A stretch of DNA of 2,335 bases, taken from NCBI RefSeq assembly GCF_003334385.1, contig NZ_QOWN01000100.1. The stretch is one strand, 5' to 3'. Below the pieces are notes generated by a model. The model was not told the DNA's origin. It saw nothing but the letters and a program-made list of their open reading frames with translations, and ran no database searches. This document shows, piece by piece, positions 1 to 1,859 of this stretch. Positions within the stretch are counted from its first letter, which is position 1. Each line of letters begins with the position of its first letter. Made by a program: the position numbers and the translations under genes. This stretch comes from Escherichia coli (lineage in GTDB: Bacteria > Pseudomonadota > Gammaproteobacteria > Enterobacterales > Enterobacteriaceae).

Positions 1-134
1 AACTCCGCGCCCTCCGGCTCCAGGATGTCACCATCCCGATCCGGAGAAGGCGTTGACGCAATCCCGGTGATCACCCGCTCATCCTCACTGAAGGATTTCA
101 CCGTCAGCAGGGAGCAGGCCCGTTTAAGAGTCAC
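1..134 (-). CDS. Prohead (head maturation) protease, HK97 family (Peptidase S78/U35-like), N-terminal 44 codons only; gene continues past the left window edge
   Basis: Minus-strand frame opens with GTG at 134..132 and stays open to position 1 (VTLKRACSLLTVKSFSEDERVITGIASTPSPDRDGDILEPEGAE). The pattern E-R-[VI]-I-x-G-[IY]-A-S-T...D-R-x-G-D...G-A-x-F is, from memory, characteristic of HK97-family prohead protease N-termini. An AGGAGG Shine-Dalgarno sits 5 nt upstream. The in-frame ATG at 136..134 is followed immediately by TGA, so GTG is the usable start. Not in the ORF track because it is truncated and short. Confidence 0.6.
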   Translation of the reverse strand, partial: MTLKRACSLLTVKSFSEDERVITGIASTPSPDRDGDILEPEGAE

Positions 135-139
135 ATCAG

Positions 140-145
140 CCTCCT
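140..145 (-). promoter_or_regulatory. Ribosome-binding site (AGGAGG) for the prohead protease gene
   Basis: Plus-strand cctcct at 140..145 is AGGAGG on the minus strand, 5 nt upstream of the GTG start at 134..132. Confidence 0.5.
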
Positions 146-171
146 GAAAATAAAAAAACCGCCGCAGCGGT
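146..171 (-). terminator. Short GC hairpin followed by U-tract (possible weak intrinsic terminator, attenuator or mRNA-stabilising stem-loop) between terL and the protease gene
   Basis: On the minus strand ACCGC-UGCG-GCGGU (plus 158..171; 5-bp stem with 4 GC pairs, 4-nt loop) is followed directly by UUUUUUUAUUUU (plus 146..157). The stem is short, so termination efficiency is uncertain. Confidence 0.3.
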
Positions 172-197
172 CCATGATGGTTACAGGGTGAACAGGG

Positions 198-1859
198 TTA
201 TATGAAAAAAACCGCATATTCTTTCTTTTTCGGCTCCGGATTCAGGGACATCAGGGATACCGCATTGAAGAGCGCCATCAGCGGGTCAATTTTCCCCCGC
301 CCGCTGGCCTGTTTGGTAATAAGGATAGCGTTACCTTTAGGCTCCACCCGGGCATTGCCAACGCACCAGGCCATCAGTGGCTGACCACCATGCACCAGTA
401 CTCCCTCAGCCAGTTTGCGCTCGGTGGTTTTTATGGCCCCGCCCAGCTTCCAGCCCTGGCTTATCCCCACAACAATTCCGTCGGGGATCCCGGCTTCCGC
501 CAGTGAATCCAGAATCTGCCCCACACCTGACGGGTCAATACCGATATGCTCCAGTAACTCAGCCTCATGAATACGACGCACATACTCCGCCACTTCCGCC
601 GTGTCATCCCCGACCCGACGGACAATCGTCATGTCTCCACAGGCCACAAAATCCTGAAAACGGGATGCCTCACTCTTCCGTCTGACCACCGCGGTTTCAT
701 GCGCCCAGGCATGGCCCCAGCCCAGCCATTCGCGGGTTTCCCTGTCACGGCCAATCACGTACATTCCCAGCAGATCATCCAGGCCCCCGCCGTCAATCCC
801 CACCGTCACCACATCAGCGCGCTGCAGGATATCGTCCAGGCTGACGCGCCTGCCCTGCTGCTCCCAGAAATCCGCACCCGCCCAGCGGTCAGAACGCAGG
901 GCAAGACCAATTTCCACATTGGCATGTTTTGACATGAAGCCACGAAATGCTTCCTCACCAGCCTCCCGGGCTTTACGGTACTCCCGGTACAGAAAAGCCT
1001 CATCCACCGAATAACCGAGATTCGGATTGACCATGGCGAGGTTTTCCATCAGCAGGTGAGCCCCGCTTTCCACCATTTCAGGAGGGTGTTCAAATATCAC
1101 CGGCAGAAAGTGCGGATCATGAATTTTGCCGTCGCGCACATCCCGGGCGTACTGCAGTTTCTGTCTGAACACCCCGGCGGGCGGTTCATTCGACTGGGTG
1201 GTCGTATACACCACAAACCCTTCCGGGCGGGAGGCAAGGCCGCCTATGGCTTCACGTAACATGTCCTCCGCTTTGTACTGCTTGCCAAATAACCACAGTT
1301 CATCAATCAGCGTCCCCACGGACTTGATACCGGATACCGTATTCGGATCGGCAGCCACCACCTTAAGGGTGGTGTCCGTCACCCTGTGGGTGATGGTCCG
1401 GATATGTGTCTGCACCTGACAGAGGTCATCCAGATCATCGTCCCGTCGTACCATATCCCGGGCAGGGTTGAAGGCGTTGGCCGCCACCTCCACAGTCGGG
1501 GCCAGAATCGTGTAACCCGCCGCCTGCCGCCAGTTCAGTAACAGCGCCGTCATCATGATCCCGGCAGCCAGCGTGGACTTCGAGTTTTTCTTGGGGATAA
1601 GGATAAACACTTCCTTGATATGGCGCACACCGGTCTGCGCATCGTAGGAGCCAAACAGGGCCGCCACCAGGTCAAACACCCACGGTGCACAGGACTCCCC
1701 GAATGTCGGGCTACCCGGTGCATCCACAATTCGCAGTTGTTTAAAAATCGCCAGGGCATGTGCGGCCTCGTCCGGATAAATCGGATCCGGAATAATCGAC
1801 AGCCCCTTTTTCAGGCGCTCTGCCCAGTCCGGGCAGGCTGTGCTCCATACAGGTATCAT
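198..1859 (-). CDS. terL: Phage terminase large subunit (TerL): N-terminal ATPase domain plus C-terminal RNase H-like nuclease domain
   Basis: Uninterrupted 553-aa ORF. Walker A-like P-loop PKKNSKST (aa 89-96, nt 1572..1595), Walker B-like TLIDE (aa 183-187, nt 1299..1313), and a C-terminal region with acidic nuclease-type motifs (VTVGIDGGGLDD at about aa 351-362, then CGDM and VGDD). Length and domain order are typical of HK97/Terminase_1-type large terminases. GAGGG Shine-Dalgarno 6 nt upstream of the ATG. Stop TAA at 198..200. Confidence 0.92.
   Translation of the reverse strand: MIPVWSTACPDWAERLKKGLSIIPDPIYPDEAAHALAIFKQLRIVDAPGSPTFGESCAPWVFDLVAALFGSYDAQTGVRHIKEVFILIPKKNSKSTLAAGIMMTALLLNWRQAAGYTILAPTVEVAANAFNPARDMVRRDDDLDDLCQVQTHIRTITHRVTDTTLKVVAADPNTVSGIKSVGTLIDELWLFGKQYKAEDMLREAIGGLASRPEGFVVYTTTQSNEPPAGVFRQKLQYARDVRDGKIHDPHFLPVIFEHPPEMVESGAHLLMENLAMVNPNLGYSVDEAFLYREYRKAREAGEEAFRGFMSKHANVEIGLALRSDRWAGADFWEQQGRRVSLDDILQRADVVTVGIDGGGLDDLLGMYVIGRDRETREWLGWGHAWAHETAVVRRKSEASRFQDFVACGDMTIVRRVGDDTAEVAEYVRRIHEAELLEHIGIDPSGVGQILDSLAEAGIPDGIVVGISQGWKLGGAIKTTERKLAEGVLVHGGQPLMAWCVGNARVEPKGNAILITKQASGRGKIDPLMALFNAVSLMSLNPEPKKKEYAVFFI

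Follow-up and report, generated by a model that had tools for sequence, protein, structure and literature searches.

Where is the portal gene of a phage head module in which the large terminase gene (terL) is followed directly by a prohead protease gene, and is such a module complete? This question is raised by a stretch of Escherichia coli DNA of 2,335 nucleotides (here called the window), for which a sequence-only reading had placed the terL stop at position 198 and the next start at position 134, with no portal gene in the 63-bp gap between them. We found these coordinates to be exact. We also found that the gene order departs, as had been claimed, from the canonical HK97 order of terS-terL-portal-protease-MCP (major capsid protein), and the HK97 record confirms that this order is the canonical one. 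On the evidence below, the window is very probably the packaging and head junction of a BP-4795-like (Marienburgvirus-type) lambdoid siphophage or prophage, in which HK97-type parts are permuted and partly fused.

The real genes of the window all lie on the minus strand (Table 1), and its open reading frames (ORFs) include no portal gene between terL and the capsid gene. The terS stop codon and the terL start codon overlap as ATGA at positions 1856 to 1859, terL ends with TAA at positions 198 to 200, and the capsid gene begins with GTG at positions 134 to 132, a start that is identical in RefSeq. The 44 codons of the capsid gene that lie within the window translate as VTLKRACSLLTVKSFSEDERVITGIASTPSPDRDGDILEPEGAE. 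In the window, terL is intact, as are the visible portions of the terS and capsid ORFs. A search of the window against Rfam identified no family, with a sub-threshold snoRNA match alone, and the window contains no Chi sites.

Table 1. Features of the 2,335-nt window, in the order in which they are read on the minus strand
Feature	Positions	Strand	Remarks
terS, 3' part	1856..2335	-	C-terminal 159 codons; 5' part beyond the right edge
terL	198..1859	-	Complete ORF, 553 aa, large terminase
Last 12 codons of terL (EPKKKEYAVFFI)	201..236	-	Follow the conserved LNP motif
Non-coding spacer, terL to capsid gene	135..197	-	63 nt
Terminator-like hairpin and U-tract	146..173	-	Hairpin 156-173, U-tract 146-155
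Shine-Dalgarno sequence AGGAGG	140..145	-	5 nt upstream of the capsid-gene GTG
Capsid fusion gene, 5' part	1..134	-	44 full codons and 2 bases of the next; 3' part beyond the left edge

The identities of the two terminase genes are supported by several kinds of comparison. The full-length homologue of the terS product is 187 aa long and matches the PHROG terminase small subunit family phrog_641 (1.8e-68), and terminase small subunit is also the annotation of this gene in the matching E. coli and phage records. The terL product matches the Pfam families TerL_ATPase (PF03354; 2.1e-11) and TerL_nuclease (PF20441; 9.3e-10) as well as the PHROG terminase large subunit family phrog_9 (1e-146). In a search of solved structures, it matched the HK97 TerL structure 6z6d (E value of 9.2e-10), and it is 23% identical to HK97 gp2 over 490 aa (E value of 1e-11).

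The gene that follows terL is only partly contained in the window, and the annotation of close relatives shows that its full-length homologue has 645 aa. We identify this gene as a fusion of an S78 prohead protease, a coiled-coil, scaffold-like region, and an HK97-fold major capsid protein. In the 645-aa protein, Pfam Peptidase_S78 (PF04586) matches residues 48 to 153 (8.3e-8), coiled-coil-like matches cover residues 145 to 255, and Pfam Phage_capsid matches residues 386 to 635 (1.1e-13). Over its whole length the protein corresponds to phrog_617 (2e-261), and it also matches phrog_80 (2.2e-42). Against the NCBIfam models, the fusion scored 77.3 bits for the HK97 major capsid protein (TIGR01554; cut-off of 27.5) and 46.6 bits for the HK97 prohead protease (TIGR01543), the latter value being under the curated stand-alone cut-off of 59, as expected for a domain that sits inside a fusion. 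Residues 21 to 156 align by BLASTP to the HK97 protease, gp4; the catalytic-serine motif GLSVGF at residues 108 to 113 is conserved with the Ser114 motif of gp4, and the His of WQHDH (residues 53 to 57) lies within one residue of the gp4 His65 position. A search of solved structures with the fusion protein returned a single weak capsid match (9d9w; E value of 0.0017). The fusion gene is tripartite, and both a stand-alone protease gene and a separate capsid gene are absent. Thus, the earlier assignment of this gene as a protease was correct for its S78 domain but not for the gene as a whole, which encodes a 645-aa fusion with the capsid protein. We give almost no credence to the idea that the left-edge ORF is misassigned and is really the N terminus of a portal or another protein in a canonical gene order, since, for all that the window contains just 44 codons and ends before the start of the Pfam S78 match, the full 645-aa protein matches Peptidase_S78, TIGR01543, TIGR01554, and phrog_617, aligns to HK97 gp4 from residue 21 on (GLSVGF included), gave no portal-family profile match for the ORF starting at 134, and is accompanied by a separate downstream protein with a full-length match to the portal model TIGR01537.

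In the closest records, the portal gene starts ~2.2 kb downstream of terL, past the capsid gene and a 73-codon ORF. At this place in BP-4795, outside the window, a 454-aa ORF is a full-length match to the HK97-family portal model TIGR01537 (351.7 bits; cut-off of 112), and an E. coli chromosome record (L002) contains the same 454-aa portal ORF at 100% identity. In BP-4795, the E. coli chromosome, and phage Lys8385Vzw, the order of genes is HNH-terS-terL-[protease::scaffold::major capsid fusion]-orf73-portal-second ORF-Ad1-head closure; at the place of the canonical terS-terL-portal-protease-MCP there is terS-terL-[protease::MCP]-orf73-portal. The head closure gene of these relatives is followed by genes for an HK97 gp10-like protein, a tail terminator, a major tail protein, and the remaining lambda-like tail, with tape measure and tip genes also present in the tail module. 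The portal, connector, and tail genes are known from relatives 96 to 98% identical to the 2.3-kb window rather than from the window's own flanks. In these relatives, all components of an HK97-type head are present, and the head module is permuted and partly fused, not reduced.

The ORF after the portal gene overlaps the portal stop codon by ATGA and is a fiber-like, translationally coupled gene. PGAP labels the portal "frameshifted," and PHROG 2271 models a portal of 859 aa. We rejected a programmed frameshift in the portal gene, as the ATGA stop/start overlap is conserved and there is no conserved slippery run across 22 loci; the sole fused version of the portal (861 aa, in L003) results from a G5-to-G6 homopolymer indel. 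The "frameshifted portal" annotation thus covers two coupled genes, the second of which is separate, conserved, and fiber-like.

We found matches to the window in 1,255 of 5,426 complete E. coli genomes, nearly a quarter, with a median of 2 and up to 8 places per genome, and, at 90 to 99% identity, in 94 phage records, mostly those of Stx-converting phages. At least 80% of the window was covered at 90 to 99% identity in 1,130 E. coli and 92 phage records that share the same annotated neighbors, so the order is not a product of chance or of assembly. The best match to an E. coli chromosome had 98.4% identity, and BP-4795 (NC_004813) is 96.0% identical to the window at 100% coverage, with the same features under the match. 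The phage relatives are 48 to 58 kb long and have a full lambda-like tail module. One of them, Lys8385Vzw, with 96.4% identity over the window and an unchanged gene order, was induced from an O103:H11 strain and plaque-purified, is a siphovirus with a long non-contractile tail by electron microscopy, and lysogenizes laboratory strains (PMC6986202). With these records, the gene identities, the gene order, its wide conservation, and the functionality of the arrangement are established.

The same records bear on the possibility that the element is a satellite or a reduced or defective remnant, with a lost or displaced portal gene and a dependence on a helper. This reading draws on the portal being missing at its canonical position and on the decay of some prophage copies: an IS66-like insertion separates terL from the capsid gene in L007, and terL, capsid, or portal genes are fragmented in L005, L009, and L016. 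It is very improbable, however, given that the relatives are phages of 48 to 58 kb with full sets of head, connector, and tail genes, that Lys8385Vzw makes infectious siphovirus particles with this order, and that the window shows no damage to terL or to the portions of the flanking ORFs that it contains. We interpret the four decayed copies as ordinary prophage erosion, and the window's own copy could belong to a decayed prophage as well. The sequence-only reading had offered two accounts of the missing portal, a location elsewhere or a reduced module; the portal does lie elsewhere, downstream of the capsid gene, but a satellite or defective state is not supported, given the full relatives and the infectious Lys8385Vzw. 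Nor does its description of the element as a structural oddity apply, as phages of a very common E. coli family normally have this order. The arrangement was already known in the sense that public annotation has contained it from the BP-4795 record onward, where a "putative major head protein/prohead protease" directly follows the large terminase. Our search of the literature for an explicit account of either the gene order or a fusion of an S78 protease with a capsid protein found nothing specific.

To place the permuted head module, which we take to be complete, among its relatives, we surveyed 80 viral contigs from IMG/VR with terL products 63 to 99% identical to the query terL. Head genes were located by tblastn and ORF-level BLASTP, with PHROG confirmation for one locus per type. 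The gene order was permuted in 32 loci and canonical in 46, with the remaining 2 left unassigned. The canonical loci contain terL, a portal gene of ~405 to 515 aa (typically 405 to 440 aa), a protease gene of ~220 aa, and a capsid gene. In most loci with the permuted order, the protease and capsid protein are fused in one ORF. In two loci, L034 and L073, the order is permuted but the protease and capsid genes are unfused, and the start methionine of the separate capsid gene lines up with Met193 of the fusion. There is also an AAGGA sequence 10 nt upstream of the Met193 codon, and it is possible that an internal start at this codon would yield a protease-free capsid protein.

All 14 viral contigs with a terL at least 82% identical to the query have the permuted order, as do the database records of BP-4795 and of an E. 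coli chromosome, and both orders occur in the wider terL family, at 63 to 71% identity. The possibility, raised earlier, that this order is simply normal for the terL clade concerned is thus correct for the close clade (at least 82%) but not for the wider family. In a neighbor-joining tree of terL core residues 1 to 541, the permuted loci were monophyletic in 0 of 100 bootstraps and were found at three or more places on the tree. The permuted locus L078 paired with the canonical locus L066 in all 100 replicates (87% amino acid identity), and a group of permuted loci (L034, L037, L040, and L073) paired with the canonical locus L028 in 98 of 100. Outside the near-identical query clade, permuted loci have portals that are 37 to 68% identical to the query portal, compared to 21 to 30% for those of canonical loci. 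Therefore, the permuted module is a coherent unit that is found with several terL lineages.

The end of terL provides a further view of this relationship. In an alignment of 82 terL tails, the protein is conserved through ...KIDPLMA..NAV.LM.LNP, and its last ~12 residues fall into two classes. In all permuted loci, whatever their core lineage, the tail consists of a basic stretch, an aromatic residue, and a hydrophobic run, as in EPKKKEYAVFFI, AAATKKFQIFVLG, and AATGSKFQMFVV; the terL tails of canonical loci are unrelated. The terL tail thus covaries with the type of head module that lies downstream. When L078 and L066 are compared at the DNA level, identity falls from ~77% through terL to ~35% right after the LNP codons, ~36 nt before the stop. 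Thus, the mosaic joint falls within the 3' end of terL, which makes the tail part of the head module.

An alternative to the horizontal exchange of a preformed module is that the permuted order arose repeatedly and independently, by local rearrangement within the individual terL lineages. The scatter of permuted loci over at least three places in the terL tree would fit such a history, and the permuted but unfused loci L034 and L073 could be its intermediates. Against it, the portals, capsids, post-portal gene, and spacer hairpin of permuted loci are more like one another than like those of canonical loci. The tail motif common to all permuted loci of any core lineage also argues against repeated rearrangement, as does the sharp similarity break inside terL of L078 and L066, which is a recombination signature, and we consider this history unlikely. 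We conclude that the permuted module has been joined to different terL lineages via recombination within the last dozen terL codons. By analogy with the prohead-binding C termini of other large terminases, the tail that is exchanged in this way would most likely be a portal docking peptide.

The spacer between terL and the capsid gene is almost always 57 to 63 nt long in permuted loci. At the terL-portal junction of canonical loci, the genes mostly overlap or abut (-10 to +10 nt), and a few of these loci have larger overlaps or gaps of 181 to 288 nt, which are partly an effect of longest-ORF start calling. The spacer contains a GC-type hairpin with 5 Watson-Crick and 2 G-U pairs and a 4-nt loop, followed by a U-tract, and this hairpin was found in 13 distinct spacer variants of permuted loci. 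One change affects both sides of the hairpin, with an A-U pair in the window and a C-G pair in most variants, and the stem is longer in L037 and L078. Conservation of the hairpin was judged by folding each sequence separately, as MAFFT placed the variants with 5-nt loops, L037 and L078, out of register. The GGAG of the Shine-Dalgarno sequence is conserved in the spacer alignment. A pattern scan of the window for terminator-like sites showed no enrichment (2 observed versus 2.2 expected in shuffled sequence), so what speaks for the hairpin is its conservation and where it lies. Directly upstream of the major tail subunit gene there is a near-copy of the element (AACCCGCCGCGTGCGGGTT plus a U-run), and putative terminators are annotated at the equivalent places in the HK97 record, before the protease gene and before the major tail gene.

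These features suggest how the locus might be expressed and its products assembled. In the BP-4795 record, Q, stx, the lysis genes, HNH, terS, and terL are on the same strand. Because the head and tail genes lie on a single strand and follow Q and the lysis genes, the late genes would be expressed from a single, Q-antiterminated transcript. Their products would assemble in trans, and gene order would have no mechanical consequence. The abundant capsid protein is encoded after the scarce terminase, and the 63-nt spacer may uncouple its translation from that of terL. The spacer hairpin, U-tract, and AGGAGG would most likely function as a read-through terminator, an mRNA-stabilizing element, or a translation enhancer. 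In this role, the hairpins could be read through under Q and block stray transcription by unmodified polymerase, or they could stabilize, or boost the translation of, the mRNAs for the two most abundant virion proteins. By analogy with Gifsy-2, the protease would be carried into the procapsid as the N terminus of the capsid subunit and would there remove both itself and the scaffold region.

Bringing these elements together, we tentatively propose, with a little less than even confidence, that the last ~12 residues of terL are a portable docking peptide of the head module and that the hairpin and U-tract are a dedicated expression element of the capsid and major tail genes. If the docking peptide is real, recombination after the LNP codons would plug one HNH-terS-terL engine onto portals that are ~25% identical, which would explain the spread of the permuted module across terL lineages. 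A docking peptide that is exchanged with the head genes would be of moderate interest to specialists, and the mosaic joint at the terL 3' end, the terL tail that tracks the head type, and the fiber-like gene are of modest interest to those who study phages. For annotation, terL followed by a protease without a portal gene is a recognizable mark of a prophage family that is very common in E. coli, and this adjacency is no reason to flag an element as a satellite or as defective.

When compared with known systems, the window is closest to BP-4795, to long-tailed Stx1-, Stx2c-, and Stx2a-converting phages, and to O157 prophages, which have the same genes, order, and 63-nt spacer. Nothing of substance differs between BP-4795 and the window, which is another copy of this arrangement. 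Unlike phage satellites (P4-like elements, PICI, and capsid-forming PICI), the relatives of the window have complete head, connector, and tail modules and include an infectious, autonomous member. The large terminases of lambda (gpA) and of T3 and T7 (gp19) have C-terminal tails that bind the prohead or portal, and a short C-terminal peptide of terL appears here to be similarly matched to the head. In contrast to those systems, we infer the link of the terL tail to the portal, rather than to another product of the head module. A passage of PMC12315714, citing Effantin et al. 2010, describes a single tripartite gene in Gifsy-2 for a prohead protease, a scaffold-like region, and the coat protein. 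The ORF described here likewise contains a protease domain, a coiled-coil region, and a capsid domain. In Gifsy-2, the protease domain is ClpP-like and the portal gene stays between terL and the capsid gene, whereas here the protease is of the S78 type, like HK97 gp4, and the portal gene follows the capsid gene. The inventory of parts is that of HK97 gp1 to gp7, with a terL ATPase/nuclease, a portal, an S78 protease, an HK97-fold capsid protein, Ad1, a head closure protein, and a gp10-like protein, and the two systems also share terminator-like hairpins before the protease/capsid and major tail genes. The HK97 record shows the order terL-portal-protease-MCP, in which the protease and the capsid protein have a gene each, while in the family described here the portal gene lies behind a single-ORF fusion of the two.

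Among the loci compared, two metagenomic relatives (L034 and L073) have the order terL, protease, capsid, portal, with the protease (184 to 212 aa) and the capsid protein (471 to 477 aa) encoded by separate ORFs, showing that the permuted order is possible without the protease-scaffold-capsid fusion. When the fused gene is aligned with these unfused capsid genes, its internal Met193 falls at their start Met. The sequence AAGGA lies 10 nt upstream of the Met193 codon, and a Gly codon 4 to 5 positions upstream of it is kept across relatives. Together, these features suggest a possible internal translation start that would yield a capsid protein without the protease part.

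Features of the window and the loci compared (L001 and L002, database records for BP-4795 and an E. coli chromosome; other L-numbers, further loci compared)
Feature	Coordinates	Strand	Position or basis
Post-portal ORF	L002:10401-11624; L001:7239-8624; L084:2887-3624	-	Directly 3' of portal gene
Internal Met193 (MNIGEQIKSFENKRAAL...)	L002:14558, codon 193 of capsid fusion gene	-	Alignment to unfused capsid genes
Second hairpin and U-tract (AACCCGCCGCGTGCGGGTT TTTTATTATC)	L002:8896-8914	-	Closely upstream of major tail subunit gene
73-codon ORF, phrog_829, conserved	L002:12931-13152	-	Between capsid and portal genes
Separate protease and capsid ORFs, permuted order	L034:1971-4144; L073:2217-4258		Metagenomic relatives
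IS66-family-like insertion, three ORFs (225, 115, and 523 aa)	L007:9813-12428		Between terL and capsid gene
201-aa ORF	Window 1620-2225	+	Antisense to terL and terS

In L002, the 73-codon ORF and the annotated start of the portal gene share 55 nt; a distant relative (L037) has two unrelated small ORFs in place of this ORF. In PGAP annotation, the ORF that follows the portal gene is a "frameshifted" portal's second half; PHROG 1289/2271 label it "portal protein." We rejected its assignment as a portal half, since the junction is an ATGA stop/start overlap that joins a distinct, conserved gene to the portal gene. A single locus among those compared (L003) has a fused version, an 861-aa "portal" that results from a G5-to-G6 homopolymer difference just ahead of the portal stop (L003:7540-7560). 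The extra G probably reflects an indel error in sequencing or assembly, and it may be the source of the long portal models in annotation pipelines.

The post-portal protein has a long N-terminal helix and 54-aa tandem repeats of variable copy number (giving versions of 245, 407, 461, and 515 aa). Its C-terminal beta domain is conserved and matches CBM_5_12 weakly; in L078, the protein also has a true collagen-like Gly-X-Y region. The protein looks like a trimeric fiber, perhaps of the head or neck. Particles of Lys8385Vzw, an inducible siphovirus with the same gene order, have a capsid of ~84 nm, and some carry a second small capsid (~30 nm) at the distal tail end, for which the authors give no explanation (PMC6986202).

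L007 illustrates a decayed prophage copy: its capsid gene has lost its initial codons to the IS66-family-like insertion. The antisense ORF in the window showed no gene-like signs and most likely just reflects the G+C-rich coding strand opposite it.

The hairpin and U-tract ahead of the major tail subunit gene closely resemble those in the window between terL and the capsid fusion gene. In HK97, putative terminators are annotated at positions equivalent to those of these hairpins.
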